Origin: Amoebophrya sp. A120 | Lineage: Eukaryota; Protista; Dinoflagellata | DNA: 64,000 nucleotides | NCBI GenBank assembly: GCA_905178155.1 | Contig: CAJINV010000019.1 | Coordinates: forward strand, 76,237-140,236 | Direction of reading: 5' to 3' | Shown here: positions 72 to 63,388 of the stretch, one piece after another | Position numbering within the stretch: position 1 is the first letter of the stretch | Layout of the letters: each line of letters starts with the position of its first letter | Program-made: the position numbers and the translations under genes | The notes under the pieces: model-generated | Told to the model about the DNA's origin: nothing | Database searches by the model: none | Seen by the model: only the letters and a program-made list of their open reading frames with translations

Positions 72-1319
72 TGCTGCTCCTCCACGTACTTCCGACACTG
101 GTTTGCGAGCGAGCGATATCAACTGGAAATACGTCTGGATCTGGAAACTTATGATGCAAGGAAGGGAATAGTGAAAACACTGTATAAAAAATGCGCTGCC
201 CAACATGACAAGTTTTGCTATGTTGGTTCTGCTTCTGAGTTGCGTACTCCGCATGAGAAACTGCGTTTTTGCATGGCTGGCAAGCGGAGTTCTTCGCGGC
301 CACGCATTACAGAGTTCCGAGTCATGCCAGACGAGCATCACATTCACAAATCTCGCATTCTCCCCGACCCTGACATATTTGCAGTTGATAAGCGACAGGC
401 GTCTTTGGAAATCGCTTCCGGGTACTGCGAGCCCACGCGGTGCAGGAACCGCTCCCAATTGCGGCCAAGCGACGAAGATTGGGATGTAGACGAGGACGAA
501 GAAGAACCGTGCTCGCTCGTGCCGACCTATCCTGTGTAAAAACGTTCCCACCTCCCCAGAGGCAAGATGGAAAATCTGCTACACAAATCAGCCAGCTTTG
601 GTTGTTGCGCATGACAAGTTTTGCCTCGTAGTGTAATGCTGTTTAGCTGGTCCAGCAGCATCACAGATCTAGCATATCATGCTTATTGGAGCATGACAAA
701 TTCCGAAACACAAGTAGAAAATGCTTCTCATGGGGCTGCGCATGAGAAACATTCTCAGCATGCGGATTAGCATTACAACTATGGGGTGGGGACGTTTTTA
801 CTCAGGATACGACCACGTCGTTGCACACTTTTTTGAAGTCTTCGTTCCGCTTCCGCGCGTAGTCGTTTTCCCTTTGCAGGTATCAAGTGCAAAAGTGTCT
901 GGGTCTGGAAGAATGCAGACTTGTCATGCATATTTTGTATGATGATTGATGCCTCTAATGCATGATCTAGCAACACAGATTTTTAGAGGGGTTCCTAATG
1001 CCTATTCCGCATGAGAAATGCCCTCTCCACGTAACACAAACTGGAGTCCTGTTGCTGGTCATGCAATACAGATTTTTTTGGAATCCAAAGACAGAATTAC
1101 AAGTTACAATCCTCCAGACCCAGACATATTTGCAATCCATAGCAGGCCGAAAACTTGGGACTGCCCTTTGACTTCGAAAAAGGTGCGCTGCTGGTTCCGT
1201 GCGGTTTGCCGAATCTGGAGTTTCTCTTTGTACTTGCGAATTTCCAGATCCAGCTCGTCTCGCCGCTGCTCCAGCTGCAGGAAAAGGTCGCCCGAGTCAG
1301 CGACAAACGAGGACGTCAT
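1..1319 (-). CDS. Coiled-coil hypothetical protein, 5' part (continues past window start); interrupted by introners at 881, 528, 117 and 1-71
   Basis: ATG at 1319. Removing each element plus 5 bp gives an open frame: MTSSFVADSGDLFLQLEQRRDEL...QVFGL|QRENDYARKRNEDFKKVCNDVV|GTSEHG...KDACR|SLANQCRKYVEEQ. Confidence 0.8.
117..390. mobile_element. Introner family A
   Basis: tatcaactggaaatacgtctggatctggaa...cccgaccctgacatatttgcagttgata; DR agcga/agcga. Confidence 0.9.
528..809. mobile_element. Introner family B
   Basis: tatcctgtgtaaaaacgttcccacc...ggtggggacgtttttactcaggata; DR cgacc/cgacc. Confidence 0.9.
881..1141. mobile_element. Introner family A
   Basis: tatcaagtgcaaaagtgtctgggtctggaa...ccagacccagacatatttgcaatccata; DR gcagg/gcagg. 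Confidence 0.9.
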
Positions 1320-2231
1320 GTTTGTCCAGATTTTTAGGAAAGTAAAATTTTCTACAGCATCAACAAGAACTGATCAACAAATTTTACATTAGAAGTTGTG
1401 GACGGAAGTTAGAAGTAAGTACAAAACGTAGGTGTTGTCTGCTTGTTTGGCAAACACACTGCGATTACATCTTCGAGCAGGAGATTTTTTTTTTGGCCAG
1501 ATGGTGCATCATCAATGCAGGAGCAACCCAACTCTCTTCGCCCGGGACCGCCCTCGTCGTGTGGTCACAACATTCTTTATCCGCCTGCACTTGGGCGAGA
1601 TGTGCTCTTATTATTGAAACTACACGACAGTTAAACTTGTTGTAAAAGCACTCTGTTTGTGAGAAATTTCAATTTGCACCGCTCCACATCGTAGTTTGCT
1701 CTCGAAAGTTTTAATGTTTTCGAAGAGGCAGCGCAGCCGCCGGTCTTGTTGCTGCGTGCGGTTAACATACTAAGTTCTATTTCTACGTAGCGTACTGCAC
1801 CTACTCACGAAGAGAGACGACGGAGAGGCTACAGAACAATTGGGTTCATGTTTATACGGTATAGAAAAAAAACACTTAAAGTGTTTTTTATGAGCAGAGG
1901 AGGCGCAGACGAACGAACAGAGACCGTGGCATCTTTGGGAATGACTTGCTCACGTCGGTCAACAACGTCGAACCACGAAAAGCGGAGGCCGAATTTTTTT
2001 CTAGAACCAGCAAACATTTGCATTCTTGGAACGGGAGCCTGGCGGTTATCATACACAATTTTTACAACACATCATCAATTCTTTATCTTTACAAGGATTG
2101 GATACAAGAAGCAGGGGGAGTAAGTACATTGATACGAACAGTGTTGTCACGTCAAAACACAAATAAGAGAGTCATTCTCATATTATTTCATTCCCCTTTT
2201 TTCTTCCGTGTCCCTATCGGGATTCGATCCA

Positions 2232-4822
2232 CTACGAGGAAATCTTCTCCAACTTTCACGTCCCCCCATCTCCCTCGGTCGCTGCCGGTGAAGCCGTATC
2301 AAATGCAAACCTGTCTGGGTTTGTCATGCTAATACATGGATGAACAGCTGCTGAATCCAGTACGCAGCCGAGCATGAGAAATTCCAGGGGTGCTGGAGTG
2401 GGTGTGCAAGCACGATCCGCATAAGAGATCGAGTATTATTTACACGAAAAACTGACAGGAGGGCTCTTCCGTCACATTACATGCATAGAATACATTTTAT
2501 TACAGACTTCTGCAGCTGCTGCATGAGCATGCAAGTGCAGCATTACAAATCCTCACGCAACCTTCCAAATCCAGGCATACTTGCAATGCATAAGCCCCTG
2601 CACCACCAGCCGCGTCTCCCGGATGGTTGCTGGCGCCATCTTCTGAAACCGATGCAGCCTCAGCCATGACTTCGTGGGTAATGTTGCCACCTGGGGTAAG
2701 TAAGTAGTTTGTTGTTCTCTTCTTCTTCATGCATGGCAAAGAAACATAAAATGTGCGATAAACTGGAACTGCATGGGTACTATCAGGGTCATGAAGAACA
2801 AAGGATCATCTCCATTTTTCTGTAATGCTTGCCTGCAAAAGGAAAAGCAAAGAGAAAGAAAAGAATAGCTCAATAATGAATGTAGCTTCAACATCTTTGA
2901 TACTTCCCTTCTTCCCTGCCTCATCCGTTCCGCCGGCCGCTACCGCTGCAGCGAAGTGGTTTTCCACGTTCGCTTCCGTTAGTGCCTGGTGAATTTCCTT
3001 TTCCTCGTCTCGCATGTCTTGTCGCGACCGGCAATACGCATAGACACACAAGTATGCATTGCAAAAGCATCTTCGCGCTTGTAGTAAATTGCACATATGC
3101 TTACAAATAATTTTTCCGAAAACAAATCATGCAGATGATTCAGGTGATACAAGATTGAAATATACTACGAGTTCGATACTCTTGCACAGGATAAGATGCT
3201 GCAGCAGCACGCGATAATTACGCCAAAAATGACCAGGTCGACGACAATAAAACCTGACAAATCATGTGAAGAAGGCGCTTTGTCCAAATTTTTTTCAAAA
3301 ATTCCGCATTTTTAAACGACAACTGCACGACGATTTATTTCACACGCTACTATAACAAAAACTAAAAGAATGAAGAGCCATGCAGGGCTTGTAATACGCT
3401 ACAGAGTCAGATTCGATTTGTGCTGAAAGTAGTAAAACGACGGAGTAATTTGATGTGAAAACAGTTCTGTACCAGCCATTGTGAAGGGGTGCTTTTCTAG
3501 CTCCTCTATGCCCTCCTCCACAGTCTCGTTCACACTTTTGTTCGCGCTCGTGTCGTGGTTCAAAGCCGCCTGTTGTGTCGCGTTATTTTGCGTCACGGTC
3601 ACGTTTTTGCCGTTTTTTGCGATGTCCAGCCGGGAAAAATGCAGCCCGCTTCGTTTTTCTTCCAGCAGAATCTGTCGCTGGTCGTTCTTGCCGCCCTCCT
3701 CGACTTGTTCCTGTTCTTCTCTTCTCACCAGCGATGACGTTAAGCTTCTACCACGTTTCGTCTCTATTTCTCCGGCCGTCGTTGCAGTGCTTGTTGTGCC
3801 GTCCTCGAAATCAACCAGGATTTCTTGTTGTTTTTCTGCAACAGCTTTGGCGGTGGAGAACTTAATATGAGTTCTATCTTTTTCATTTTCATCTTTGCTG
3901 TTCTTGCGGGAAGACGAAGAAGTACTAGAGGAGAAAGGAATACTTGAAGGACCACTGCTTGTTCTTTTACTTTTTTGTGAAAAAAATTCTTCTCTTTGTT
4001 CCTGTAGTTGCTGGTGTTCTCCTGTTGTGGCCGCGTCCCCGGCTACGACGACAGAAGATGTTGAAAGGGGAGAAGATGAAGATGCTCTTGCTTGTTTCTT
4101 GTTTTGAAATATTGACTCGGTGTTTATTGTTCTTGACGGTATTGTTTTTCCTGCTCCGCCGCCAGTGCCGAGAAGACTGTCACGATCATGCTCATCAGGA
4201 TTTATTTGCAGCCGCGGGTAGTTCTGGTGCTTCTGCTTCTCAATCATATGCCTATGCGGTCTTCGTCGCATCTTCACTTGATCTTGTTCCGGTTGCTGCA
4301 TTTTTAAGACTGCGTGCTCCTGTAGAAGTCCGGCCCCCGCGTAGAGATCTGGGTTCTTCTATCCTGAGTAAAAACGTCCCCACACCAGAGCTGTAATGCA
4401 GATTTGCAAAGACAGGAAGACTTGGAATGCGCATCCCCATGCGAGCCATTTCGAGTCGTGTTTTGGAATTTGTGATGCTGTGAACAGGATGAGTAGATGA
4501 ATCTGTGATACGGCTGCACTTGCTAACCTGCACTACACTGCAGAGCGCAACTTGTCATGCGTGACTCACAAAACTCCTAGGCTTGTGTTGCAAAATCCCC
4601 ATCCTGACTCTGGTGTGGGAACGTTTTTACTCAGGATATCTTCACTGGGTCATCTTTGTGCAGCTGCGCGGCCTCGAGAGCTTCTACTACGCAATTATTT
4701 CCGGTGCTGGAAAGAGAGGCTGCGAAATAGATGAAAATCGCAGGGTGGGCGAAGAAGCAAAAGCCACGAGGAGCGCAGGGTCGCCCGATGACCCGGGGGA
4801 CTTTTCGTAAAGTCATTTTCAT
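2232..4822 (-). CDS. Probable type-I membrane protein with S/T/E-rich ectodomain; 3' exon structure below ~2900 uncertain
   Basis: Removing element 4360 joins ORF 4631-4894 to ORF 3399-4301 (DDPVK|NPDLYAGAGLLQEHAVLKMQQPE). GT-AG intron 3254-3472 leads in frame to a TM segment FIVVDLVIFGVIIACCCSI|CVYAYCRSRQ. Confidence 0.65.
2297..2592. mobile_element. Introner family A, diverged
   Basis: tatcaaatgcaaacctgtctgggt...ccaggcatacttgcaatgcata; DR agccg/agccc. Confidence 0.8.
3053..3193. mobile_element. Introner family C, diverged
   Basis: tatgcattgcaaaagcatc...cgatactcttgcacaggata; DR degenerate acaag/agatg; removal of element plus 5 bp keeps frame. Confidence 0.75.
3254..3472 (-). other. Canonical GT-AG spliceosomal intron (predicted)
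   Basis: Minus strand g|gtacag...ttgtcag|gt; joins exons in frame. Confidence 0.6.
4360..4638. mobile_element. Introner family B
   Basis: tatcctgagtaaaaacgtccccacaccagag...ctctggtgtgggaacgtttttactcaggata; DR tcttc/tcttc. Confidence 0.92.
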
Positions 4823-6108
4823 CTTGAGCGGCCTTTCCTTCGTGTGCGGTCCAATCGATTGATAGATTTCTATTTTTCCATTGTTCATCGTCACACTTTC
4901 TTGCGATAATTGATACCGAAATTATACGATGAAATAAAACGATCGAAAAATCAAAATCGCGCAGAGCTCGGAAGACACATGGAGTTGTAGCCTTTTGCCC
5001 CCTCATCTCTCCGATCAATGTCCTTGGCGATGGAGCCACGATGCCAATCCGATTATACGAAGTGCCGAAAAAACATCATTCCACAAAACTATATCACAAG
5101 CACCTCAACGTCAACAAGAACCACATGCTTAACGCCCGTTTTCTAGACGTTGTACTCTCTTTTTTTTTTACATTTACCTGCAATAATCACAAATTTACGC
5201 TCGACTGCTGACCCTCCGACCCTCTCGCTAACGAGTGTTCTTCGATAAATGCGGAAAGCAGAGGACAAGAATTTCTTGGTAGTTTTCAAGGGTTCTTCCG
5301 CATCCTCTTTTACTTCCGACACCGCAATGATAGTTCTTTCTAATCCTCTACAATGACAATCATCGCAGTGGTTAATGTTTGATGTTCACGTCTTCTTTCC
5401 TTTGTAAGAACTACGACCATGTCGATGTCCGTGGCGGGAAAGCTTTTTTACATCATAGATGGGAACGGCAAAAAGGTACTGCTTCATACTCAAGCCGACG
5501 TCAGCTCTGAGGAAAACGAATGTAGCGCAAGCTTCTATAGACAAAAACGAATTGTCAGGCGAGCTTGAAAGCTGCTCTCGTTCTGCCTTTGGATTCCTGA
5601 ACAAGGTTATAAAATCGTCTGTACTGTATTGCATTGAGAGCTGCAAGGCATGATCTGAGGAAAAACAAAATTATGCGTGTTCGCTTCTAGGTGAGCGAGA
5701 TCATGGCATTGTCAGATCATAATTTTTGCCAAGTTTTCTGCGAGTTCGTGTCTACTGCTGAAAATAAATCCATATGAAAGCAAAAGACACAAGCATGGTA
5801 CAACGCACAGATTTCTGTACTGGTCAAAAATGTCGATCCTGATCCAAATCAGAAAACATACACTCCGTTTCGTTCCTTTCATGTGGTATAATCCCGGAAC
5901 CCGAGCGGCCCGTTGGACCGCGCCGCTGGGGCTGGGTATAAAAGCGTACTGGGCCTAGAAAACAACACCGAGGCCCAGCAACTAAAAAGATGATTAAAAG
6001 CCAGTAACACAGAAAAAACATTTTTTCATGTGAAGAAGATGAACAAAAATCTTTCAATTTGCAAGTATATATCAGAGTAGTCTCGGGTCCCACCCACGGA
6101 AGAGGCTC

Positions 6109-7361
6109 TTAGCTGCGAAGAACGACGACGTCGCAGAACCGAAACCTGGTCGCTGTCGTTGGGTCCGGGCGTGGTTCTTCGAAAATTAAAAGGGCTTTTT
6201 GTGCTTGTTTAGTGGATCTGTCTTGACTTGCGACGCCGTGAAGTTTAAGTGTCACGTGCTGGCTGGGCATATCAAATGCAAATATGTCATCTGGTTCTGG
6301 AAGATTGCAGGAGTAGGCTTGGCATGCTCTGCTAGCAGGACTCCAAAGTCTGTCATGGACGTTACCTCCCAAAAGCCTTATTCTGCAGCTGTCATTCAGA
6401 GCCGCGATTTGTTTATGGAGAATACACAACACCTAGCAAGAACTCAGAAACTTGTCATGCTGAGCCGTCACATCTGGTTGTGGCGTCCTCAGGATTCGCC
6501 AATAAGCACACCAGCATCACAAGTTTCCAGACCCAGACATATTTGCAGTGCATAGGGCAACCACGACGTCGAGAAATATGCGCGCAGGAAGTGTTCCAAG
6601 GTATCCTCTGGGCTGCTGGTGACCATACTCTCTCTATCTGAATACACCACCTGCCTCGGGAAATGCCGCGGCACGATTGTGAAGACCTCCGCATGCGAAT
6701 CTGGAAGGTTCGGATCAACCTTTTCGAGGAGGTTCTGAGCAGTCCAATCCTTCCACTCTTTGAAATCGTAATCGAATTCATGCATTAGCTTTCCGCCCCA
6801 GTCAACAAGCCGCAGTGTAGGCTGCTGCTCGGAGCATGCAGTGGGGCTACTTGAGCTGGCGCAAACGGACGACGAGCTTGGGGCGGTTTTTAGCTGCATG
6901 GCTACTGCGGGAGAACGAGGCTGACCTGCTCCTTGGTGTGCAGGAGCAGCAGGGTGAGATGATGCATCAGGCAGCATAGCTCCTGCGGGAGAAGAGCGCA
7001 GATATGGTGGGAGCACCACCTTTCTGAGAGTGTCTCTGTCACGACACCGATTTGAGTTTGGGTGCGCAGGAGCAGGAGGGTGAGACGATGTCTCAGGAGG
7101 AATAGCTCCTGCGGGAGAAGAGGGCAGATATGCTCGGCGCACAATGTTTTTTCCCACCCTGTCTCTGTCACGAAACTGATCTGTTCCTTGGTGCGCAGGA
7201 ACAGGAGAGTGAGACGATGTCTCAGGAACCGGATCTTCTCCTCCGCGCGCAGAAGACGCAGCCTGAGCCCTGCTACCTCCAGAACCGGAGGCGGCCGCGG
7301 CGTCGCAGACATGATGAACCACATACAATGTGAGGAACGACACGGCACCGGCACGCAGCAT
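6109..7361 (-). CDS. Secreted hypothetical protein (~320 aa) with internal ~42-aa repeats; one introner
   Basis: Signal-like N-terminus MLRAGAVSFLTLYVVHHVCDA; removing 6270 element plus 5 bp joins STSWLP|SQHVTLKLHG in frame. Confidence 0.75.
6270..6554. mobile_element. Introner family A
   Basis: A-type TIRs; DR gggca/gggca. Confidence 0.9.
6930..7230 (-). repeat. Coding tandem repeat, ~126-129 bp unit, ~2.5 copies
   Basis: gtgaga(t/c)gatg recurs near 6954, 7080 and 7209; peptide P(E/D)(T/A)SSHxxxPAH occurs three times. Confidence 0.75.
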
Positions 7362-8309
7362 GGTCGTTGATTGTGCGTCGACCTAATGGACAATTGGTAG
7401 ATTAAATTTATAAAGGACGAGCTCCTCCTCGTGCTTGTAGTTAGTTTAGTGGATTGGATATGTGTACGTAGTGAACTTTCGACGTTCGTTAAGTACTAGC
7501 AAAATACATAGTATTACTTAAATCGGTGACAGAGAAGATGAAATTCTTGCAAACAACTGCAAGAGTTGGTCCTAAAAGAGATCGGAGCTGCTTCCTGCGA
7601 GTTCTAATGAAAGGCACTATGATACCTAAAAATTGATGTCCTCGTCTGGGCAATGACGTTGCCATGCAAATGCCTCGCTAAAACGAGAAATAGAATTGAA
7701 AGGGATCACAACAAATTTGAGCACACACGATGGTGATTTGATGAAAATCACGTAGATCAACAATAATGTATTTTTTTGTTGTCACCGATAATTCTAATAA
7801 ATTGTGCGATCGAATGGCCTTGCTGTAAGTATGTGTTGAACTGGATCCGACGCTGGGGATGCAAGGAGATCAGGAAACTTTGATGCTGGACCGAGTTTTT
7901 TCCTTGCATTTTTTTTGATCATCGACTCCAGGGCCGAGGGGGCCGAAAGCTGCAGTTTCATTTTTGATCCGCGACACACGATGCGTGTGATCTTTATCAA
8001 GACTCATAACCTCAACAGTTGGTAAAGAAGAGCCGAAGCCTGACCTTGCGGCGCCTCTCCAGAGAATTATCAACACGTGTGCTGCCTTTCTTAATCTTCA
8101 ATGCACTGCATCGTCTCGTCAGAAGCTAGAAGAACTGACGCTTCGAGGCGTCGCAGTTATTTGATGTTCCTGTTCTCGGAACTGTAGCAGCTATAAAAAG
8201 GTCATTTCAACATCAACACTCAGGATCAACAGCAGGAGCACCGCAAGAGGGGCACGTAACCGTAAGTTCTATGTGATCATGTGAACTACGACTTCTCGTG
8301 TCCTCTACT

Positions 8310-11300
8310 TCACGGCTTCACCCCCATCCAAAAGTTCGCGCCCAGAATGTTCGAGACGTAGTCTGTATGCATTGCAAATATGTACTGCGCGTCTGAAAAT
8401 TTTTTGCAAGATTTGTAATGCGAAAGTGCGAGCACTGCTCGTTCTCACACAGAATACGCAACACAGGGAATGGAAAAAACTTGTCATGCCTACCTGCTAA
8501 TGTTGCAGTCTGTTCATCATTTGCAGTAGCATCACAAGTTCTTCAAATTCCAGACCCACGCATATTCGCAATGGATAGTCCGTGGTGGGTTGGGTGGTTT
8601 GCCCCACCGCCGCGAGGACGATGTTCTTGGATTCCATCATTTGCACAAAGTTCCGCTTCTCAAAGTTCAGTTTCCTCAGTTCTCATCCTGAGTAAAAACG
8701 TCCCTACCGCAGAGTTGTCATGCAAATCCAAATGCGCAATAACAGGAACATTTGTAATGCGCAGCTCCATGAAAGGTATTTCCAGTCGTGTTTTGGAATT
8801 TGTAATGCTGTCAACCGGATGAGAAAATGGCTGTCTCGTGCGGCTTCCGTTGCCAACCAGCACTACACTGCAGAGGGAGACTTGTCATGCACAGCTCGCA
8901 AAGCTTGGAGATTTGTGTTGCTAGATTCCCAACTTGACTATGAGGTGGGGACGTTTTTACACGGGATAGCTCTGACTCTTTCATCATCCAAAATTTGAAC
9001 AGCTTCTCTCGCTCCTTGTTCAAGTCGATCTGCAGGGTTATGCACCGCAAATATTTCTGGGTCTGGAAGAATGCAAGTTTGTCTTGCTCGGCTAGCATGA
9101 CTGCCAAGTCTGTCACTCACGTTACCCAAAAGCACCAATTTTCTGTCATGCAAAACAAAAGTTTGTCATGCTCAATAGACAGTGCCTAGCTCTACTCAGA
9201 CACTTGTCATGCTGAGCCGTCATTTGTGGCGTCCTCGTGATTCCTCGCCAGTCAGTATCACAAGTTTCCAGACCCAGATGACGTGTTTGCATGTGATAAG
9301 TGTCCTCAAGTTCTGCAGCCGCTCCTGTCTCAGATGCCGTTGGTGCATGCTGAAGCCCAGCGTCTCGTCATCTTCCAGCAGCTTCAGGACCTGCTGCTCC
9401 GGTTCCGACCGGTCTTCCGCTCCGCCGCGCTCCAGTCTGACAACTTCCTCGTCTATCAGGTCGAGCTTCAAAATCAACCGTGAGTATAGGCTATGCATTG
9501 CAAAAGTATAATCGCACTAGTAGTAACTCTAACTCCTGCACATACAAATTCGTCTGCATGAGAAATCGAATTTGGTGCAATACGGATTTACCTTAAGAAA
9601 AGAAAATGCAAAAGATTTGCAAAAATGCATGTACTGCAATTTTTACCACGAGTACGATACTTTTGCACTTTTGCATACAGGCCCTCGAGCTCCGTCAGGT
9701 CCGAGAGTAGCGCCGACTATGAAATGCAGAAGTGTCTGGGTCTGGAAACTTGTGATGCTAAAATGTGCATGATGAAAACCCTTCCGAATGCAGTCCGGCA
9801 TGACAACTTCCCAAAACGCTTTCGCATAGGCAATCCGCATGAGAAACTGCGTTTTTGCATGACAAAAGAGCCTGCTGCTTTTGTTGGTTATGCAATACAG
9901 AGTATCTAGGAATGGAATGCTAGCATTACAAGTTCCAACCTTCGTCCAGACCCAGACATTTTTACAATCCATACCGACTGGTGCTCCTCGATATCGGACA
10001 GCAGCCCGGTTCGCTTCCTGTCTCTGATTCTCAACTTGTAAAATCTGTCCAGCAGCTCATCTGTCTCCGCTTTTCTGTATCCTATGGAAAAACGCCCCCA
10101 CCCCATAGTTGTCATGCAAATTTGCATGCGGAAAATGTTTCTCATGCGGAGACACATGGGAAGCATTTCCTAATCGCGTTTTGGAATTTGAAATGCTCCA
10201 AGTCCAATCAGCGTCATAGGCTAGATTTGTGATGCTGCTGGACGACGTAAAGAGCATTACATTACAAGCCCAAATTTGTCATGCGCAACAGCCCAAGCTC
10301 GTTGATTTGTCTAGCAGATTCCGCATCTTGACTATGGGGTGGGGATGTTTTTACTCAGGATATCCTCCGAATGGAATTCACGGTGTTCAGCGCCCGCATC
10401 ATGTCAATGCCTTGTCTTCTCCCCGCCATTATCAAATGCAAATATGTCTGGGTCTGGAAAGATGCAACTTGTCATGCGCATTTTAGATCATGAAAAAATC
10501 TGTCATGCACTGGGAGCAAAAGCAGCCCTTTTTCTGGTCTCCGAAAGAAGGGATTTCTCATGCGGATTAGGCATTGAGAAACCTCCTGCTCAAAACCTGT
10601 GTTGCTGGGGCTTGCATGCCAGACCTTCTGTGTGACGCAGACTCTGCATCACAATCTTCCAGACCCAGACATTTTTGCATTTGATAGCCATCTCGAGCCT
10701 TTCCTCCTCGGTGCGCACCTGGCCCCAGCAGACGTCCGGCGACGGGGCGTTCTGCTTCGTTTTCCCGAACTTCTTTTCGTACCGGTGGTCGGGCTGGTAG
10801 AACCCGCCCCGCGCTAGGGACGCGGCGGAAAAGTCCATGTCGTCCTCTCTCGGGTCTTGGAACTGCGCATATCCTCATCAAGAACGTCCCCACACCAGAG
10901 TTAAGATGGGAAATCTGCTAGACAAATCGACTAGCTTTGGTTGTTTGGCATGACAAGTTTTTGTCCGCGGAGTGTAAAAATCCTGTTTCGCTAGTTCAGA
11001 AGCATCGCAGATCTAGCTTAGCATGCTGATTCTAGCATTGCAAATTCCAAAACACGAGTAGAAAATGCTTCTCATTGAGCTCCGCATGAGAAACTTTTTT
11101 GGCATGCAGAATTGCATGACAACTATGGGGTGGGGACGTTTTTGCATATGATAGCGCAATCGAGGGGTTTATCCCCGCCGAGGCCTGCATCACCCCGCCC
11201 AACAGCTGCATATCCTGAGTAAAAACGTCCCCACCCCAGAGTTGTCATGCAGATTTGCAAAGACAGGAAGACTTGTAATGCGCATCCCCATGAAAGCCAT

Positions 11301-14300: not shown

Positions 14301-14477
14301 GTAAAAATTCTTACTGTTATCTTCTTGCCGGAGGTCATCGTCCTCGTCCTCGTTTTCTTCACTTTGCTGCAAGTCGATGTACCTGTCTACGACATTCGAA
14401 ATGCGGTTCGAGAGATCCTCTTTCTGCGGAAGGACTGGCACAGGGGCGGTCTCGGTCTCGCCGAAACGGAAAGCCAT
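8310..14477 (-). CDS. Hypothetical protein (924 aa; disordered N-terminus, helical C-terminal part), 14 exons separated by 13 introners
   Basis: ATG 14477 to TGA 8310-8312. Hand removal of 13 elements, each plus 5 bp, leaves 2775 nt (925 codons) with no internal stop. Confidence 0.88.
8366..8577. mobile_element. Introner family A, diverged
   Basis: tatgcattgcaaatatg...catattcgcaatggata; DR gtctg/gtccg (synonymous Thr). Confidence 0.85.
8684..8968. mobile_element. Introner family B (left end CATC)
   Basis: B-type TIRs; DR gttct/gctct (synonymous Glu). Confidence 0.88.
9039..9298. mobile_element. Introner family A
   Basis: A-type TIRs; DR agggt/agtgt (synonymous Thr). Confidence 0.88.
9492..9677. 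mobile_element. Introner family C
   Basis: tatgcattgcaaaagtat...gatacttttgcacttttgcata; DR taggc/caggc (synonymous Leu). Confidence 0.85.
9718..9973. mobile_element. Introner family A
   Basis: A-type TIRs; DR ccgac/ccgac. Confidence 0.9.
10078..10362. mobile_element. Introner family B
   Basis: B-type TIRs; DR ttctg/tcctc (two mismatches, both synonymous Arg). Confidence 0.88.
10430..10686. mobile_element. Introner family A
   Basis: A-type TIRs; DR gccat/gccat. Confidence 0.9.
10870..11153. mobile_element. Introner family B
   Basis: B-type TIRs; DR gcgca/gcgca. Confidence 0.9.
11211..11489. mobile_element. Introner family B
   Basis: B-type TIRs; DR ctgca/ctgca. Confidence 0.9.
11752..12058. 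mobile_element. Introner family F (single copy in window)
   Basis: tatggagccgtcaggtttgaaat...atttcaatcctgacacatccata; DR tcacg/tcacg; removal restores frame. Confidence 0.88.
12152..12418. mobile_element. Introner family A
   Basis: A-type TIRs; DR cgcga/tgcga (synonymous Ala). Confidence 0.9.
12482..12721. mobile_element. Introner family D
   Basis: tatggcgttctcaaacgttacattctc...gagaatgtaagtaacgtttgagaacgccata; DR ttccg/ttccg. Confidence 0.9.
13176..13385. mobile_element. Introner family E
   Basis: tatccaagaaaaaaactgtgtaagtg...cacttacacagttttttttcctggata; DR gaaga/gaaga. Confidence 0.9.
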
Positions 14478-42970: not shown

Positions 42971-43156
42971 CCTGTTCCGATGGTATGCACAAAGGACAAC
43001 AAAAATCGCCATCAAGACGCCTTTCAGCTGCATGCGACCTCACTGTCGTCGTTATCTTAGGTGAGAAGCCTTTCGCCTCCAAGTTTAAGAACACAAGTGC
43101 ATGATCACACACACGCCATGGGACATCATCTACTTCGTCGTCCCACAACATAACAA

Positions 43157-51202: not shown

Positions 51203-51230
51203 AGTTCTCAACTAACAGTTCTCAACTAAC
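51203..51230. repeat. 14-bp tandem repeat x2 at retrotransposon 3' end
   Basis: agttctcaactaac agttctcaactaac, ~25 bp beyond the ORF stop. Confidence 0.7.
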
Positions 51231-51255
51231 ATAGACCGGAGCCTTTTGCAGAGCA

Positions 51256-52800: not shown

Positions 52801-53910
52801 TTCCCACCCCGTCGTGGTGCAAGGCGAGTTCATCCAAGTCGCACGCAAACTCGTTCTGGAAGACGATATACGAGCACTTCCCGGGAGCAAGCTGCATATT
52901 GCTTCGGCTGCAGAAGTCGGCGACCACGTCCAGGGCGGCCTGGAGTAGTTTCTGCGCCTCCCCTGTCTCCCCGGACCCGTGCTCTAGCGTGAGCGCCAAG
53001 TCGTCCACGTACGCGAGGACTTGCACTCGTGGGCACTTCTTCTGCAGCTCTCGGAGCAGAATGTCGGCGAAACTGCACCAGACCAGCGGGCCGAGGCACG
53101 TGCCTTGCGGGACCCCCTGGCGCAGCGGGACGGCCTGGGAGATCTCGTCGCTGAACCTCACCACTCGGCGGCGGTTGGTGACGAAGGAGCAGATCCACCG
53201 CGTGAGCAGCAGGAGCTCCTGTTTTCGTGCCGGGTCTTTAAACTCGTGCCGCCGCTCCAGTAGTCCGCTGAGGAACAGCGGCGGGCAAACACGCTCGAAG
53301 GCCGAACTCAAGTCCAGGAAGCACGTCGCCCTCCGGCGATTCTTGCGCAGGGTGTCGGAGGCCAGGGCCCCCAGCGTTGCCGTGTGGTCCGTCGCGCTTC
53401 TTGCGGGTGTGTCCCCGTACTGGTTCTTGCTGTACAGCGGGGCGCCCTCCGCCTGGAAGGTTAGCCGCAGGCGCCGCAGCACTGTGCGTTCCCAGGCTTT
53501 CCCCAAGCACGACGTCAGGGCCACCGGCCGGAGGGATTTGGGTAGGTCCGCGGCACGGCCGGGCTTTGGTACTGGTACGCAGACTTCCAGCCGCATGACC
53601 TCCGGCGTCACGCCTTCGGTGACCCCTTGCTCGAAGGTTGCGCGCAAGAGCTGCTTGCCCTGTTGCGGGAGGTTTTTCAGCAGCACCCCGTGGATGCTGT
53701 CTGGCCCGGGAGCCCCGCCCGGCTTTTGGCCCCGTAGAGCGAACTCCACGTCATCCAGCTCCAAGCGCAGCGCTGTGCTCGGCGCTAGCTCTTCCGCTAG
53801 TGTGTGCTGGTATTGGTCCCAGGCCACTCGCTCTGCCCCGGGGTCCAACACCGGGTGGGACCCGTAGAAATGCGCCAAGACACACGCGAGCTTTTTGAAC
53901 ACCAGCTTCC
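52800..53910 (-). CDS. Retrotransposon reverse transcriptase segment
   Basis: APGPDSI, LRPVALTSCLGKAWER, FLDLSSAFERV, GVPQGTCLGP, YVDD. Confidence 0.9.
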
Positions 53911-56547
53911 CGGCGTATCGCAGCGCTGTGGTCTGCTGCTTCGGCGGCGGCCGCCCTTGTAGTTCCCACCCGCAAAAGCCGGAAGGCCCCGCTGGTTGTC
54001 TGCTCCGCTTGCTCGAGCTTTTGCCCGAACTCGTCGTCCCTCCTGCTGGCCTCGGCGTTTGCTACACGCGCCGTCGCGCGCCGTAACGCGGTGCGCCAGT
54101 ACAGTCGCTCCGCCGGCGGTGCGAAGGCCACGCGCTTGATGCACTCTCCCCGCTCTTTCAGTGCAAGGCCTAGCTCCGTGCCTGTTTGCCACCGCGGCTG
54201 CCTGTGTCTCTTTCTCGTTCTCGTGACATTGCTGCGCGGGATAGACCTGTGCGCGGCGGCTTGTATCGCAGCGCGGATGTGTGCGAACTTGTCCTCGACC
54301 GACGGTGGTGCCGGGTGGTCCCGGAGAAAGGTGCGCATCTCTGCGCGGTACAAGTCCCAGTCCGCCCGATTGAAGTTCAAGCGCGTGCGCCTCTTCGTTG
54401 TGGGGAGTGGTTCCTGCCACAAGTCCGGGCTCCACGGAGCTACCGTTGGGTCCGCCGGGAGGGCCACTACCGCCCCGGGGGCCGGCGCAGGTGGCGTTTT
54501 TGTGCTTGGTGTCGGGACCGGTGTGGGGCCGCCAAATGAAGGAACTATCGGCGCCAGCCCGGAGACTGCGGCAACTAGCAACCCCAGCCCCGGCAAGACC
54601 GGCAGTCGCTTCTCCCCTGTGTTGCTCTGCGCGTCCGCGCTGTGCTTGTTCGCGCGCTGGGCCCGAAGGCGCTCGAACTTCTCCTTGCGGAGAACCTTCT
54701 TTTGCCTCCCGGTGAGATTTACTTTCCCACCACCTCCTGCTGCTCCCTGTGTTTCGAAACTGGCGTCCTGTGTGCCCCGGAGGCCTTGGTTGGCCTTCTG
54801 CCCCGAGCCGGTAGCGCGGCCTCGTCCCGCCCCTCCTCCCCCGGCGTCGTCTTTTGCTGTGTTGCTGGCGGTGAAGTTCTGCTTCCCCGGACGCTGATCG
54901 GCACGTGGCTCGACCAAGTCGAAGACCAGGGCCGCATGGTCTCCGCCGACGAGGCACACTGCTGGCCCCTGCGGCTGTAGTTCGGCAGCCCGCGCGAGTA
55001 GTCTTCCGGTCAGCAAGACTACGTCCGGCGAGGTCTTCGACGCAGGCCGGGTCGGCAGCGGGGTGGTGTAGAACTCCAGCGCCTGCGCAGTTGCCCAGGT
55101 CTTCACCTGGGTCGCCCGTGGCTCCTGTGTGTGGTTCGCGTCCCAGGAAATTGCAATCTCCCTGCCCGGGGGCATGTTGATTGCCGGTAGGGTGGGAATT
55201 CCCGGAGGGGTGTAGACGTTCGCGCTTACGCCCCACTCCTTGCCCGTGTCGAGGTTGAACAGGGTGGCGCAGGTGGAGGCAACGTTCTTCCCGCCCTCCG
55301 CGACAATGCGGAAGTCCGGGTCTGACTTCACGACTCCCACTCGCCCCTCTCGGACGATGCTGGCAGCCCCTCCCCCGCTGCCTTCGGTCTCACAGACTTC
55401 AAGAACCTCCCAGCCCGGTACGTGGCGCTGGAGAAATTCGCGGAGGAAGTCTTCGCCGCACCAGGTTTCCTGGAGGTGGCACAAGTCCACCTCGTGCTCC
55501 TCGAGCAGCTGGCTCAACGCCGCCCCTTTCACAGAGGCCGCCGCTTCGTCGCTTTGGTTGAGCGACTGGCAGTTCCACTGCGCGACCCGCACCGCCCCTT
55601 GCACGACTGGGTGCTTCGCCCCATACTGCTCTTCCTCCGCTTTTGCTGCGCCCTTGGCCGGCCCGACTACGTGGCGCGTGTAGTACTTGACCTCCTTCCC
55701 CCGGCTACACTCGGGCAAGAGGAAGGTCGTGCACTTCTTGTGTGCCTTTGCGATGTGCTCGCTGAAACCCTGGACCCTACCCGCATACCCGCGGTTGTAT
55801 GGGCAGTGCGAGCAGTAGTAGCGCCGCGCTGCTGCAGCTTGTTTTAGCGTATCCCCCAGGCCAACCACAACGCAGGACTCGGCATTCTGGTAGTTTGGGA
55901 GGTCCTGGACGGACACAACGCCTTCGACCGCAGGCGCAGCTTCTTCCTGGTCTTCGTCCCCGTCGGGGCCAGCACTGGCGCGCCCTGTGCTGCTGCAGCT
56001 ATTCCCGCCCGCCTGCAGGCGGTTGGGTTGTTCCGCTTGTAGTGCAGGTGCTGCCAGGGCATTGGAAACGTTGTCGCCCAGGCCGGGCGGCTGGCGTAGA
56101 GCCTTCTTTTGCTCTGTTGTCGGATGCGCCGCTGCGAGCATTGCTCTGGTTCCGGAGTTGGAGATGTGCTGTGCGGCTCCCTCCTGTGCAGGTCCGCTTG
56201 CGACCTGTGTCCCGGCAACCTGCTCCAGACCAGGAGGTGTCTGTTGTGGCTGGACCTCCTGCTCCTGCTGGACCCGCGGGAGAGCAGGCTCTCTCGCTGC
56301 TGTTGTGCTGCTCACCTGAACCTGATGCATCGCCGGTACTGTTTCGTCATTTGCAGGAGGGGGAGGGGGGCCCAGCTGGATTTGTGTTGTCGCGCCGCCT
56401 AGTGCTTGTCGGCTGCTGTGTGCAGGGTGCAAGTCGTGCTGCATCGCCAGAACTTGGCGTGGGGCGGGGGTGTTTCCGTGGGCCTGTAGGCACGTGCGCT
56501 GTATCGGAGCAGCCACTGTGACTTCGGCGCCCCATCTTGTCTGTCAT
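53910..56547 (-). CDS. Retrotransposon N-terminal segment: Q/P-rich region, C2H2 finger, AP-type endonuclease
   Basis: VAQWNCQSL, HLQETW, NVYTPP, WDANH, SPDVVL, GDHAALV, LNFNRADW. Confidence 0.85.
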
Positions 56548-56639
56548 TTTAGACAGAGTATCATATTACTTTCTTCTACTTCTACTTCTTTGTTTATTCC
56601 CTTCTGAAATAACTAGAGTTTCCGCCCCTTCCCATCCGC

Positions 56640-59600
56640 TCAAATTTGCAGAAGCGCATCGCTCCCGTTTGCTGCCTCAACTCGCCCCCTCCAACTCCGC
56701 CCCTTGCAAGACTGCTGGAGGATTTTTCGGGTCAGGTATGCAGTGCAAAAAAACATCGTATTAAATGCAAGAGAAAACTGCATGACAAATCGCTTCCTGA
56801 AGCTAAATCAGTATCACAAGTGCGATTTTTCCATTTGCAGAAATCTGTCATGCGATTGTTGACCTACGAGTAGCACGACACATTTGCGATGCATATCAAG
56901 AAGATGATGGCGAAAGTGAAGAGGAGGATGATCCCGACCGTTGTCGCGGAACAGAATTCCATGAATTCCGCGTCTTGTTGCAGTTCCGGTTTATTGTCCC
57001 CGCTCTCCCGGATGAGATGACTCTTCGCACTGTTCATTCCCTGCGCCTGCTCGTTCTCCGAGGACCACCTCCCGTAGTTGAGCAGGAAATTCAGGTACGA
57101 TTGCGAAGTAGAGTCGGTCGCCGCAGAGGAAGTGGAGAGACTGCGAGTGTTTCCATCTTCACCATCTTCTTCAGCAAGAGCTGCTACATCCCCTACTTCA
57201 TTCGTCTCGGGGAAGTTGTTGTGTCCGCCCTGCTCCTCATCAGTTTGAGTTTCGACGATTCTGCTTTGTTTGAGGTTTTCGCCCTCGGATAGTTGTAGTT
57301 TTTGCGCCAGCTGCAAGTGTGGTGGTTCTTCTTCTTCTTTTCCCGCCTGCTCCTCAACATTGTCGTGTTCTTTTTTCTCTGATTCTTCGCCGAAGAAAAT
57401 TCGGTTGAAAAACGAAACCAGTTTCTGGTTAAACCGCGGACCACTTTTGCGTTGAAGGTGGTTCAAGTTCGACTTTGAAGACGTGGTCGACGTCGCTTGT
57501 TGTTGATCCAGGTCAGCTTTGTCGTCATTTACAGACTTATCAGCATCTTCATTTAAGACATCGGTTTCCCTTTCCTCGTCGACATCTTCCATGGACCCCG
57601 TCGCCGCGTACTGGGGGTTGCTGTACCCGCCCCGGAGATTTGAGGTTTTCTTAACAGCTGATGTTCTACTTCTTCTGGAAGCACCAGTGTTGACATGATC
57701 AACATCTGAGGATGAGGAAGACGTAGTTTCTATCTTTCTTGCCGAGGAGCTACTAGCCGCTCCTGCTGTGCTGGTGCTGGTTGCGGGAATTCCTGCACCA
57801 CTGGATGGAGTTGTAGATGAGGGCTTTGTTGTACTCTGCGCCACGTCGGAAGTAGATGCAGCTCCTGGTGAGCTGCTACCCGCTTGTTCATCGTCTACTT
57901 CGACGTGTTTTTCCGATGTCGCGGCACCCTTTGTAGGCGAAGAAGAAGATGAAACCGCGGCCGTACCACTGCTCTGTAGTTTCCGAGCAGCTTTACCTTG
58001 AGAAAGTCGTGCAGAAGTTGTAGTTGTTTTTGTGACGTCTTTCTTTTGGAGTTGCGTCTGATCCTGCTGCTGCTCGTCACCCTCCAACTGTAGGAATGCG
58101 GAGGAAAACGCAGTGGCTTCTGGGTCGAGGTCGTCCACATCATCTGCCTTTTTGTGATGATGATGATGATGGTGGTCGTGATGCTTGGCTGATTGTGGTT
58201 TTTCGGCAGGAGCATCCTCCTCGTCATCTACCTCTTCGTCCTTAGCCGCCGACGACGGCGCCTTCGCTTCTTTTTCATTCCCCGCGGCTGTACTAGCAGA
58301 TTTGCTTGTAGTTTTCGGTGCGGCAGCGGCAGAAGGACCAGCACCTCCTTTCGTTCGACCTTGGGTTTTTGTCTATCCTGTGGAAAAGTATCGCCCTCGT
58401 GCTAATGTAATACGGCGGATATCTTTGCATGACAGATCTGATTTTCTATTTCTAGTACCCGGGTTAGCATTGGAAGTATCATTTTCGATTCTGCAAAAAT
58501 TTGTAATCTGCAGTTGCTAGTACGTGTAGTACCACCAGTACGATAAGTATCGACGAGACTTTTCAACACTGCATATTTCCCCGCCCTTGCTGCCACCACC
58601 TTGCACATCTACCGTCGTCTTCGTTTGCGCAACAGGAGGCGTTGGTGCGCCGGCCGTCGCAGTCTGGCTGGCAGGAGGCAAAGTGGGCACGGAGAGGTCC
58701 ATTCCCGGTACCAGGCCGCTGACGACGTTCTTGCCACCAGCCTTGCTCCGCTGCGTGGAAATTTCCGGAATCTTTCCCGCGAGAAGATCCCGACCGGCTG
58801 GCGTTTCTCCCAGCACGGAGGGCGGCTCCTTTTCCACATCGTCGTGCCATTTTTTCTCCCGGTGTTTCGCAGTCGCCTTTTTGTGTTCTTTCTTCTTTTT
58901 AGCCGCTGCGCCTTCGCTGCTCTCGTCCTCGCTACTGCCGGTTGCTTTCTTCTTTTTCTTGTTCCTACTACGGGCGGCCTATCCTCTGCAAAAGTATCGT
59001 ACTCGTAGTGGCTGCTGCAGCTACTCCTGCATTACAGATTTCATGCTCTGTCTACCACAATCGCCAGCATTACAAATTCAATGCTTCAACTTGGGAAATA
59101 AATTTGTGATGCAATTTTGAATAGTAGCACGATGCTTTTGCATTGCATAGGGCTGCGACCAGTCCCAATCCCGTTGCTCCTGCTGCAACGCCGCCCGCGG
59201 CTACAAGTCCGGCCTGCAGCTTCTGATTCTTTTGGATCTCTTCTTGCAGCTCGTCGTATGAGAGTGCACAACTCTCCATCCTCCTTATTTGTCATGCAAA
59301 ACTACACCAAATCCAGTTGCTGCCTTGTAGCATTGTTTGCATGACAAACTCCGGAAGCCCAAGCAGTACTACACTAGGGACATAAATTTGTCATGCATCG
59401 GCTCCACGTGTGCTGGTGTTTGTATTGCTGTTCATGCCATGCAAATGAGGGGGAGGGGGAGTTCTGCATTGTCATAGGTTGTACAGCGTGTTGCCGTCAA
59501 GCTCGTGTTGCTATCGAATGCAAATGTGTCTGGGTCTGGAAACTTGTGATGCTGAGCCCCCCTTGGCTGAGCCTGTTCCAAGAGCCACCAAGCATGACAA

Positions 59601-60330
59601 GTTTTCGTCGAGCTTTCTTACTTTTATACGTAGCAAGCATAAGCATTACACGTGGCGTTTTTGCATGACAAAAAAGGCACAACTTGTGCTGGTCATGCAA
59701 TACAGACTTGGCACTCATGCAAGACAAGCAGCAGAACTTCCTCCTTTCCAGACCCAGACGTATTTGCAATGCATAGTTGCAAGTCTTCAATCTTCTGGTC
59801 GTCCCGGGCGTTCTCTGCTTCGGCGTTATCAGTTGCTGTTTTGGCTGCTTCTTTGGCCTTTTCGAGCTGCCTCCGCAACTGTTCGATAGTATTCTGGTCC
59901 TCATTGTGTTGTGTCTTGAGATCGTTCTTGTCACCTTGTATCCAAGAAAAAAATTGTGTAGGAAGAGCAGCGTCACAAATTTCGTTCTGCATCTACAGAA
60001 AACACCTGTCATGCGCAGCTAGTAGTGTACGTGAAAGCACGCATCAAGCGTCGGGTGGCTATGAACATGCAGCTTCGGCACGACATTGTCGTGCCGAAGC
60101 TGCTTCTTCTTCTTCCTCTACACTTGTCACAAGTGTAGCGGTTTTGCATTTTCTACATCTTTGCAAACTTACACTTACACAGTTTTTTTCTTGCACATCT
60201 TCCAGGTCGCTGATTTTGGCGTCGTCCGCTGCATCGTCTTCTCGGGCCTCCGCGGCGTCGGCATTAGCCTTCGTTAGTGCCGCCTGGTCCGTCTTATCCA
60301 GTTGCGCAAATCCAACGGACGTTGCTCAGG
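56640..60330 (-). CDS. Membrane-anchored low-complexity protein (coiled-coil N-terminal part, S/T/E-rich region, C-terminal TM); 6 introners; true start upstream and unresolved
   Basis: In-frame joins ISDLE|DDKND, EDLQ|HELDG, LYN|QLQEE, LVAA|PRSRN, KGGE|KTQG and IIFL|TRKILQ; stop at 56640-56642. Confidence 0.7.
56737..56895. mobile_element. Introner family C, diverged
   Basis: tatgcagtgcaaaaaaacatcgta...cacatttgcgatgcata; DR tcagg/tcaag (synonymous Leu TTG/CTG). Confidence 0.82.
58374..58575. mobile_element. Introner family C, decayed
   Basis: tatcctgtggaaaagtatcg...cgagacttttcaacactgcata; DR ttgtc/tttcc; frame restored. Confidence 0.75.
58980..59149. mobile_element. Introner family C, diverged
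   Basis: tatcctctgcaaaagtatcg...cgatgcttttgcattgcata; DR cggcc/gggct; frame restored. Confidence 0.82.
59257..59476. mobile_element. Introner, B-like, decayed
   Basis: tatgagagtgcacaactctcc...gggagttctgcattgtcata; internal ttgtcatgc/gcatgacaa; DR cgtcg/ggttg; frame restored. Confidence 0.7.
59512..59775. mobile_element. Introner family A
   Basis: A-type TIRs; DR gttgc/gttgc. Confidence 0.9.
59939..60197. mobile_element. Introner family E (inverted relative to 13176; right end ACA)
   Basis: tatccaagaaaaaattgtgtagg...cacttacacagtttttttcttgcaca; DR ccttg/tcttc; frame restored. Confidence 0.8.
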
Positions 60331-61150: not shown

Positions 61151-61844
61151 GGTCGATTTCCTCATTCCGGTCCGCCACGGAGGGGTCCCACTCCTGTGAG
61201 TAAGTGTTTTTTACGATAGTACCATACAAATTCTCAATAGAAAAAAGCGAGACCGCTTGTTTCTTTAATTCCGTTCTGCTCCGGACGGTTCTACTCGAGT
61301 ATGTTTGTCATTGATGTCAGTCGACTTTATCTCAAGCCGACCCTATTTTTAATACTGTTCGCTATCTCACCATGTAAGTACATGTTGGCCAGGGAGACGC
61401 TAGTAAGGCCCCAATTGGTATATATATTACCAATTCCTGCAGTGAAAGCAAAAGTAGAAGTCGGAAGCTGCTTTTTTTTTCTTGCGTTAAGAAAAAATAC
61501 CTACAACTGCAAAGCGGTAGATTCAAACCACAAACTCGAGATGCGACTTCCTGGACCAATATCGCATTAGATGCGACATTTCGCATGCATACATAAAAGC
61601 AATTGGTCCTGCAACACACTTGATGATGATTATGATGATGATGATTATGATGACTTAATACTTGTAAGACCCAGCTGTTTGGTCCATACGTTGTAAGGGT
61701 AAGCAAGTAAGTACTTACCGGCTGAACATCGAGGTGACTAATATGGAAAGAAAAAAACCCTGCACGTTCGTTCAATGCTGGTCTTTCTGCGGACTTATAT
61801 ATAGATACGCGCGCGGGCGCGCAAGTCGTTTGACAGCAGATCTT

Positions 61845-63388
61845 CAGCCATGACATCGAAGAAGTTTTGCCATTCCTGTTCTCATGATTGCAAAATTACG
61901 AGTACGATGGGCTTTTTTCTTCGGCTAGTTGTCTGGGTCCGATGCGCCGATGTATCAACTGCAAATATTTATATCCGGGTCTGGAAAGTTATCGTGCTAA
62001 TAGCTCCGTGCATGACAAAAGCAGCACGAGTAAAGGAATTATACTTACACAGGTAAGTAACATCACCCATTTGATGTGAGCGGTCCTGTTGTGCGTAAAA
62101 GACATGAGAAGCAGCGTTTTTGCATAGAAGAAAAAATCACCGCCATTGCGCAATATGTATTTACAGAATCCGGGAGCATAGAGGCTGCTGGTAGCTCAGC
62201 GTGACGATTTACAAGCCTGGAACCCTCCACGACCCAGACATATTTGCATTTAATACGATGTTCCAACCATGCGGGAATTGAGCCGCCCACTCAGCTTCGG
62301 TGTAGCATCCATCTTTGCCGGGACTCCATCAAAATGACAAATCTCCTCCCTCGACGTCCACACTCAAATACAAATTTGGGAAGCGGGTGAGGGATCTGTA
62401 GCGTGCACAATAACTCACTCTGCCATGCCAGAGAGAATATCACAGAAAAAGCAGAGCGTCGGAATGGATAGCGCCTAGACTCTTTGCTGGCTCAGCATGA
62501 CTGAAGAAGGCAGCAGAACAGCAGTTTTGCCCAGAATTGCCTAACAAATGGCAATGAGCCGATGCGTACTTACTATAGTGTCGTGTCACTTCGCGCTCGC
62601 CTTGTCGAAGGACAGAGCCGGTCTGTGGGTGTGGCGACAAATCAGCATGATAAAGAGATTTCGTTTTTGCGTCTGGGGAGAGGGGGAGAATTCCCGAGGA
62701 TAGATCGCCTGGAAGGGGCATGGGTCCCACTTCTGGAAAGAAAAATTCGCGACACGACAGTCACTATATTCATTTTGCTGGTTGTGCATGAGCGTGGCAT
62801 CACTCACAATTTTTCCTTGCATAGAAACGCGCCAAGTGTGAAAGAAATTCTCGGGGGAAAGAGCAAGAGCGTCACTGCTGTGCTCCCTCCTGTCGATCGT
62901 CGTGAATGTTGCATTTTTAAGCACCATGATAACCGTTTTTATCATGCAAGGATGGCACGAAGCGAACTTTGCGACGAACTTTTTGCGTTAGGTATCCAAT
63001 CGGCCTGGCACAATATGCCGTCATCCCCCGCCAGCATCCTACGAAAAAACGCCCCCCACCCATATTCAAGATGAGACCTTTGCGACACAAATCTTGTTCA
63101 ACCGGGGTGGCTAGAAGGTGCAGTCGCATCACGAATCCATTTTTTCTCCATTCTGATGCGGACATGATGAACTTCCAGAGAGATGAGCATCGAAAAACGT
63201 TTCGCATCCATGGAGCTGCGCATGAGAGATACATAATTTTGGCATGCAGACTCGCACGACAAACATGTTGGAGTGTTTTTGTTCTGCAAAAAAACCAAAA
63301 TGAGGCACAGCTTGGAGTTGGCCGACGGGACGTTTTTACTCAGGATAGCCAGCTTGGATGCTTCGTCCCAAGACATAACCTTGTCCAT
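61845..63388 (-). CDS. Probable short gene of unknown function; exon structure only partly resolved
   Basis: MDKVMSWDEASKLA|GDDGILCQ across element 63035 and PAWLEHR|RIGPRQL across element 61953; middle not resolved. Confidence 0.4.
61953..62255. mobile_element. Introner family A, diverged
   Basis: tatcaactgcaaatatt...gacccagacatatttgcatttaata; DR cgatg/cgatg. Confidence 0.85.
62327..62702. mobile_element. Possible decayed B-variant introner
   Basis: catcaaaatgacaaatctcctccc...ggggagagggggagaattcccgaggata; DR poor. Confidence 0.4.
63035..63347. mobile_element. Introner family B (left end CATC)
   Basis: catcctacgaaaaaacgccccccacc...gggacgtttttactcaggata; DR gccag/gccag. Confidence 0.85.

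Follow-up and report, generated by a model that had tools for sequence, protein, structure and literature searches.

Background

The introner elements of Amoebophrya sp. A120 have inverted repeats composed of TAT, seven further nucleotides and AAA, lie between 5-bp direct repeats and number 29,850 copies (Farhat et al. 2021, PMC7789003); the accessible part of that paper reports no inverted-repeat motif specific to a family. Here we analysed a stretch of 64,000 nucleotides of A120 DNA (contig CAJINV010000019.1, positions 76,237 to 140,236), hereafter the window, in which introners of different families carry one short internal motif that is better conserved than the sequence around it and is spaced at about the pitch of B-DNA. 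The elements themselves are of a known class: they match the published A120-type introners in the TAT-start inverted repeat, direct repeats of 3-5 nt, non-canonical junctions, very many copies and ends capable of forming a hairpin, and their lengths (109, 149, 209, 235, 252-262, 279, 307 and 321 bp) match those of A120 families (106-108, 148-149, 208-209, 234, 252-261, 278-279, 305 and 319-321 bp; Gozashti et al. 2025, PMC12130899). As far as the text and tables of the two A120 papers are accessible, they describe no shared internal motif, conservation or helical phasing of this kind. No description of the motif or its phasing was found in the literature searched, which included the accessible parts of PMC12005148, PMC11282704 and PMC9860276 and searches with the literal 9-mers (0 papers), picture supplements and theses aside.

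Several other systems are alike in part. The integrase-type Ginger/TDD transposons have TGTNR termini, terminal inverted repeats (TIRs), a target-site duplication (TSD) of 4-5 bp and a Gypsy-integrase-like transposase (Bao et al. 2010, PMC2836005). The present elements share with them the TIRs and the 5-bp duplication (as in TDD-4/5), and TAT resembles TGT; A120 family 38, which has the same TSD and termini, is labelled 'Ginger, 5-bp TSD, TA/TA termini' in a table of PMC12130899 and is described in its main text as being without Ginger termini and TSDs. The elements differ from Ginger in beginning with TAT instead of TGTNR, in the lack of an integrase open reading frame (ORF) in the DNA examined and in showing no strong target preference; because true Ginger termini are TGTNR, membership is not claimed. 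In IS1535, of the IS607 family, four helically phased 9-bp motifs nucleate the paired-end complex (PMC6188088). Short repeated sites from about 30-50 bp inside the ends, helical phasing and, for hAT, mixed orientation are common to IS1535, hAT/Hermes and the present elements, but here the array spans the whole element, is common to nine TIR groups and lies in elements that are also introns; moreover, IS607 elements have neither TIRs nor TSD and use a serine recombinase. The euglenid nonconventional introns (PMC12501133, PMC11282704) resemble miniature inverted-repeat transposable elements, as these introners do, and have non-GT-AG ends, which a short paired motif defines from a constant distance to the junctions; the euglenid signature reads N3-CDG…CHG-N5-6|R as against TAT…ATA here, and the accessible parts of those papers report no internal array.

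Results

The elements of the window were collected as 44 candidates with TA…TA termini, paired ends and flanking direct repeats, minus 3 nested ones, plus 21 whose limits were set by hand where clusters of motifs and repeat segments were left over. The resulting 62 elements total 14,743 bp; they start with TAT, end with ATA in inverted repeat and have the 5-bp duplication on either side. They are inserted in either orientation, mostly in coding sequence, and 57 of them lie in coding-like DNA, which makes up 63% of the window (p = 2e-7). Seven families, A to G, were distinguished (Table 1), the family-A copies at 2297, 8366, 15580 and 18190, which are BLAST singletons, being assigned by eye. 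A probable extra element near 62327-62682 (a profile match) and a partial family-A end at 1-60 stand outside the 62.

The refined motif, represented by a position weight matrix (PWM), has 10 bp, G C A T/a N A C/g A A/g A/g, i.e. GCA(T/A)NACA(A/G)(A/G), with seven near-invariant positions. The strict pattern matches the window 105 times forward and 95 times in reverse, and 191 of these 200 copies are inside the 62 elements, while dinucleotide-shuffled elements give 3.6 ± 1.8 (maximum 8). At least one strict copy is present in 59 of the 62 elements and in every family, and the top shared 9-mer, GCATGACAA, is found in 42 element interiors. The 9 strict matches outside elements are near chance level (about 4.5 expected); three (18616, 18711 and 20836) lie in two GT-AG-like introns and one (21) in a copy cut by the window start. 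These results bear out a preliminary description of this DNA, according to which the motif is enriched in all families and rare elsewhere, and its reading of the element at 33956 as two forward followed by two reverse copies is exact. Its layout for family A, a reverse copy inside the left end and a forward copy inside the right, turned out to be a tendency, as the strict copies fit it in 9 of 25 elements only. Persistence of the motif in decayed copies holds for 18190 and 59257, which keep 2 and 3 strict copies, but not for the old copies 3053 and 21579, which have no site of 8 bits or more.

The two introns just mentioned, 18567-18763 and 20729-20938 (minus strand, approximate ends), are apparently canonical GT-AG introns, and the second contains a decayed family-C remnant (BLAST match 20785-20862). 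They may be introners turned canonical, or the introners may have landed in canonical introns.

To these elements were added those of metagenome contigs scanned with a family-A pattern, which gave at least 167 loci, none of them overlapping the window exons, with at least 357 further elements; all locus-based figures cover the matches listed. A strict motif copy is present in 349 of the 357. After 7 elements over 360 bp were dropped, the 412 copies gave 23 subfamilies of at least three copies, which were grouped into nine TIR groups, and profile searches yielded 512 refined copies, 286 of the 798 hidden Markov model matches being dropped as partial, at an edge or duplicated. The 5-bp duplication is perfect in 350 of the 512 and has one mismatch in 97.

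The motif is far better conserved than its surroundings. In 312 copies from subfamilies of at least 5, the substitution rate relative to the subfamily consensus is 0.050 in the motif core, 0.141 at its degenerate positions, 0.175 in the spacers and 0.061 in TIR positions 15-30; the core is 3.5-fold more conserved than the spacers, at both GC and AT bases. BLAST comparison of the subfamily consensus interiors gave 53 matches between groups unmasked and 0 with the motif sites masked. The motif is the sole detectable similarity among the nine groups. Decay at the rate of the flanking element sequence was not found outright, since motif positions, taken overall, evolve far more slowly than the spacers, and none of the families is visibly a deletion derivative of one ancestor. 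On trees of 360 copies in 14 subfamilies (of at least 8 copies each), internal branches have a core-to-spacer rate ratio of 0.16 (0.11-0.22) and tips one of 0.41 (0.37-0.46); the ratio for TIR positions 15-30 rises likewise from 0.22 to 0.59. The strongest constraint thus falls on lineages that kept copying, as would be expected of a constraint exerted mainly through copying. The core also erodes as duplication mismatches accumulate (increment 0.027, 0.012-0.042); the motif decays after insertion.

The copies of the motif are helically phased. Distances between copies in the same orientation cluster at 31-33, 39-42, 53-54, 64, 72-75, 82-85, 92-95, 103, 123-127 and 135 bp. The 154 such pairs in the 23 consensus sequences fit a period of 10.4 bp best (mean cosine 0.49, against a random-placement maximum over all periods of 0.29), and one offset aligns both orientations to the same phase (0.53). 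The 73 copies outside those subfamilies peak at 10.5 bp (0.22). When each group was represented by a single consensus, 49 of 50 draws gave a period of 10.5, at 0.53 versus a null 95th percentile of 0.37 and maximum of 0.41. The phase is positive in 8 of the 9 groups, and doublets on the same strand 31-33 bp apart also occur in 8, with spacers that are unrelated and unalignable between groups. The phasing of about 10.4 bp is the pitch of B-DNA, and the doublets are three turns apart.

The motif is probably not read as RNA. Elements are oriented as the host gene in 210 and opposite to it in 189 of 399 copies, and among 380 in-exon copies 70 have no strict motif forward in the sense strand, 60 none in reverse and 11 neither (113 and 132 of the 512 copies, respectively, were set aside for want of a confident gene strand). 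Family B is polar, its motifs being almost all in one direction, and two of its copies lie in opposite orientations in one restored ORF (Table 1). A comparison of G·U with A·C mismatches, as a sign of RNA-hairpin selection on the TIRs, gave 221 versus 200 outside positions 4-7, with no clear bias; its power is weak because most TIR mismatches are inherited.

Removal of the elements was followed in three contig sets of one sample (runs X1-X3), whose RNA status is the tool's guess and which we took for RNA on the ground that a GT-AG intron is skipped there too (in two of the three sets). The raw-read run X8, with only 206 partial reads placed, was set aside. Among the 15 joints listed of 19, 12 skip exactly an element plus 5 nt, and the other 3 are 1 GT-AG intron and 2 repeat artefacts. 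A DNA-like run covers single-copy bins at a depth of about 25-34, whereas most element bins reach about 10^4-10^5; its contigs pass without a break from exons into elements. Because of this depth, the border-crossing contigs and the exact skips, we concluded that the elements are high-copy introns and not eliminated DNA. Elimination from DNA was considered and rejected, as DNA contigs run from exon into element and loss is found only in contigs that also lose the GT-AG intron; contigs of this kind could miss rare DNA excision. The internal eliminated sequences of Paramecium are TA-bounded insertions in coding DNA, with lengths of roughly 10-bp periodicity. They leave the DNA, whereas the present elements stay in it and their removal is seen only in RNA-like contigs. 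Taking out elements, each with one duplication, brings the reading frame back exactly and restores long host ORFs (Table 1).

Judging from three joints with unequal duplications, the transcript is probably cut after duplication position 3 or 4. No flank consensus or purine bias was found at the splice sites, and the codon fit of mismatched duplications gave no signal for the cut site. Insertion phase is biased, 114/185/81 among the 380 in-exon copies of window and loci (p = 2e-10), which would equal 49% phase 0 if the cut follows duplication position 4; a weak C…G target preference could also cause the bias. The paired ends most likely direct splicing, by analogy with the short paired motifs of Euglena (PMC12501133, as far as accessible). 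The evidence speaks rather against the earlier suggestion of the motif as a mark for removal: it is from RNA that the elements are removed, the motif points either way on the transcript at random, the element at 21579, which lacks the motif, is spliced, and constraint is relaxed on tips. The motif may keep a weak role after insertion.

The ends have a shape of their own. The consensus ends of groups A, B, C, E, F and I read TAT, 7 variable nucleotides and an A run; in groups D, G and H TAT is kept and the A run is shifted or absent. Positions 4-7 from each end are more variable than the spacers (ratio about 1.5) and often unpaired, and TIR positions 8-14 are closed in the predicted folds of 59 of the 62 elements. 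A 3-bp TAT/ATA clamp followed by an internal loop and a stem may be a recognition shape for splicing or cleavage.

Other features were seen in the loci and in the window. Four introners enlarged by nested insertions (L032:632-1465, L034:10305-10761, L066:292-772 and L019:1603-2034) have a broken array geometry, and two such introners have in common a short word and an (ATC)n/(ATG)n tail, which hint at a retroposed element. Two long TAT-ended elements, L023:505-1608 (1,104 bp) and L018:1537-2349 (813 bp), have motif-bearing ends and unique GC-rich interiors and are similar in length to A120 families published at about 810 and 1,180 bp. An 866-bp TA-ended element with TIRs, L030:11405-12270, has different ends and no motif and possibly belongs to another transposon system. 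Rfam gave 0 matches in the window, and the family-A end had 0 matches in viral contigs.

Table 1. Introner families, restored host ORFs and other features of the window
Feature	Coordinates	Strand	Details
Family A introners	117-390, 881-1141, 2297-2592, 6270-6554, 8366-8577, 9039-9298, 9718-9973, 10430-10686, 12152-12418, 15580-15915, 16780-17072, 18190-18491, 21094-21388, 21988-22253, 25848-26112, 28246-28513, 28568-28819, 29309-29552, 29628-29881, 37792-38049, 40101-40352, 45889-46171, 59512-59775, 60821-61133 (ends doubtful), 61953-62255		25 copies; span 117..62255; mostly 244-303 bp (range 212-336); end TATNNNNTGYAAAWRTGTCTGGGTCTGGAA; 85 strict motif copies
Family B introners	528-809, 4360-4638, 8684-8968, 10078-10362, 10870-11153, 11211-11489, 34448-34725, 63035-63347		8 copies; span 528..63347; 278-313 bp; 29 strict copies
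Family C introners	3053-3193, 9492-9677, 21579-21811 (by eye), 25605-25766, 28026-28181, 28926-29074, 29119-29267, 29935-30086, 30519-30673, 30984-31136, 31192-31342, 32885-33034, 33956-34100, 34775-34924, 36079-36230, 44221-44348, 56737-56895, 58374-58575, 58980-59149		19 copies; span 3053..59149; mostly 128-186 bp; layout > > < <; 49 strict copies
Family D introners	12482-12721, 34151-34387, 38179-38414, 39773-40036		11 strict copies
Family E introners	13176-13385, 59939-60197		5 strict copies
Family F introners	26707-27021, 35689-35999; 59257-59476		59257-59476 is a TIR group of its own (H in the wider set); 9 strict copies together
Family G introner	11752-12058		307 bp; 3 strict copies; seventh family in the window
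Motif copies of element 33956-34100	forward 33989, 34007; reverse 34023, 34054		span 33989..34062
Two polar family-B copies in one restored ORF	10870..11489	-	opposite orientations; 10870-11153: 3 forward, 0 reverse strict; 11211-11489: 0 forward, 4 reverse
Old intron	21579-21811	-	paired ends; no internal site better than 3.9 bits; all three RNA-like runs (one sample) skip precisely 238 nt, the element and 5 more
Host ORF	8313..14495	-	restored to 930 aa across 13 elements
Host ORF	27919..40479	-	restored to 2,645 aa by taking out 22 elements, each with one 5-bp duplication; one exon with WW domain
Host ORF	43160..47423	-	restored to 1,281 aa across 2 elements
Host ORF	56643..60325	-	restored to 793 aa across 6 elements
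LINE-like (long interspersed nuclear element) retroelement	51259-56543	-	three ORFs (Pfam: weak endonuclease, reverse transcriptase, RNase H); no introner or strict motif inside
GC-rich intergenic islands	23000-24300, 41800-43000		up to 74% GC; without elements or strict motifs

Discussion

That families otherwise unrelated carry one phased DNA motif suggests a single mobilising protein. We consider it fairly probable that the motif is a double-stranded-DNA binding array for such a shared protein, either a transposase or a cofactor that transposition needs. Several protomers would line up on one helix face of the 110-320-bp element and juxtapose its two ends for cut-and-paste transposition, so that families whose TIR cores differ would all be moved through a single binding specificity. 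It would be the paired ends that define the splice, at a fixed offset, the cut following duplication position 3 or 4; after insertion the motif would for the most part just be carried along. The preliminary description had likewise proposed that a shared factor binds the motif and assembles the ends, and at the level of sequence the motif-specific conservation, the loss of cross-family similarity after masking and the B-DNA phasing are in favour of it. An integrase-type (Ginger-like) DDE enzyme as the mobiliser is only a lead.

Several observations weigh against this reading. Pfam searches revealed no transposase or integrase in 94 of the 108 locus ORFs of at least 260 aa (14 were left out as overlapping or likely shadow frames) and no transposase in 17 window ORFs, only a LINE, and no coding partner was present in the about 0.6 Mb examined. 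The long elements L018:1537-2349, L032:632-1465 and L023:505-1608 have no convincing ORF by eye, short ORFs being unscanned. For A120, the accessible part of PMC7789003 reports that no transposase was found and argues against a general mobilisation by transposases. As for the comparison between groups, masking lowers the power of BLAST. As for the phasing, group B is out of phase overall (-0.12), groups D, G, H and I have no peak of their own at 10.4 (few pairs), the nulls ignore relatedness within groups, the PWM was built from the same kind of sequences and the loci were picked by a family-A pattern; a host DNA-binding protein would yield the same phasing. Finally, tips hold the core more than TIR positions 15-30 (0.41 versus 0.59, with non-overlapping intervals), the core/spacer increment ratios of the duplication-mismatch clock are 0.86 (0.40-4.2) and 0.41 (0.15-1.0), so that some constraint after insertion is possible, and private changes fall in the core at 3 of 34 places versus 18% expected (p = 0.26; 34 of the 40 places listed, out of 310).

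The residual constraint on tips and, without reaching significance, the private changes would suit an alternative in which a host or domesticated protein bound to the phased array marks the element co-transcriptionally for an unusual splicing machine. Such a mark would explain the independence of orientation, and it is in line with splice sites that have no flank consensus, with the concentration of elements in coding-like DNA and with the report, in the accessible part of PMC7789003, of an undetected U1 small nuclear RNA and no transposase in A120. We nevertheless regard it as unlikely, for the element at 21579, with a best internal site of 3.9 bits, is skipped exactly in all three RNA-like runs, 11 of the 380 in-exon copies have no strict motif, the core erodes along with the duplications, and constraint is 2.5-fold stronger on internal branches. 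A combination of the two ideas, in which one factor reading the array mobilises tens of thousands of introners and also licenses their U1-independent removal by sitting on them during transcription, seems to us quite improbable; if true, it would be a single DNA-encoded 'copy me and splice me' code that links transposition to non-canonical splicing.

A period of 10.4 bp is also that of wrapped DNA. The array might therefore be a chromatin or DNA-bending signal (positioning of nucleosomes or DVNP, or a host architectural protein) that aids spread indirectly through access or protection, and introners of other taxa have been linked to nucleosome linkers (PMC9860276, as far as accessible). The motif, however, is a high-information 10-mer and not a dinucleotide bias, and element lengths of 109-322 bp fit no single wrap, which makes this explanation very unlikely.

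It is scarcely to be believed that the motif copies only pair with one another and so make a hairpin of the intron RNA or single-stranded DNA. Motifs do have a higher predicted pairing probability than spacers (0.75 versus 0.59 in the 62 elements, with 0.35 for pairing with another motif), but mirror-placed outer sites show no covariation (in 246 of 412 elements, position 5 is identical at 0.37 versus 0.35 when shuffled), copies that could act as partners are almost absent from polar family B, such pairing needs no common sequence in nine groups, and the period is 10.4 and not 11; a pure RNA stem was rejected largely by the lack of covariation. A functionless relic of a common ancestral tandem repeat, to which the recurrence of the 31-33-bp doublet in 8 of 9 groups and a 117-nt, 69% match of groups D and H before masking might point, is just as hard to credit and was rejected largely by the core conservation (3.5-fold over spacers, 6-fold on internal branches), the doublet spacers being unalignable between groups.

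For work on the spread and the splicing of Amoebophrya-type non-canonical introners, the motif provides a defined bait for the mobilising protein and a signature for finding the autonomous element, and it offers a way to separate the copying signal, the internal array, from the splicing signal, the paired ends. It may show how one transposon system creates thousands of frame-preserving introns.

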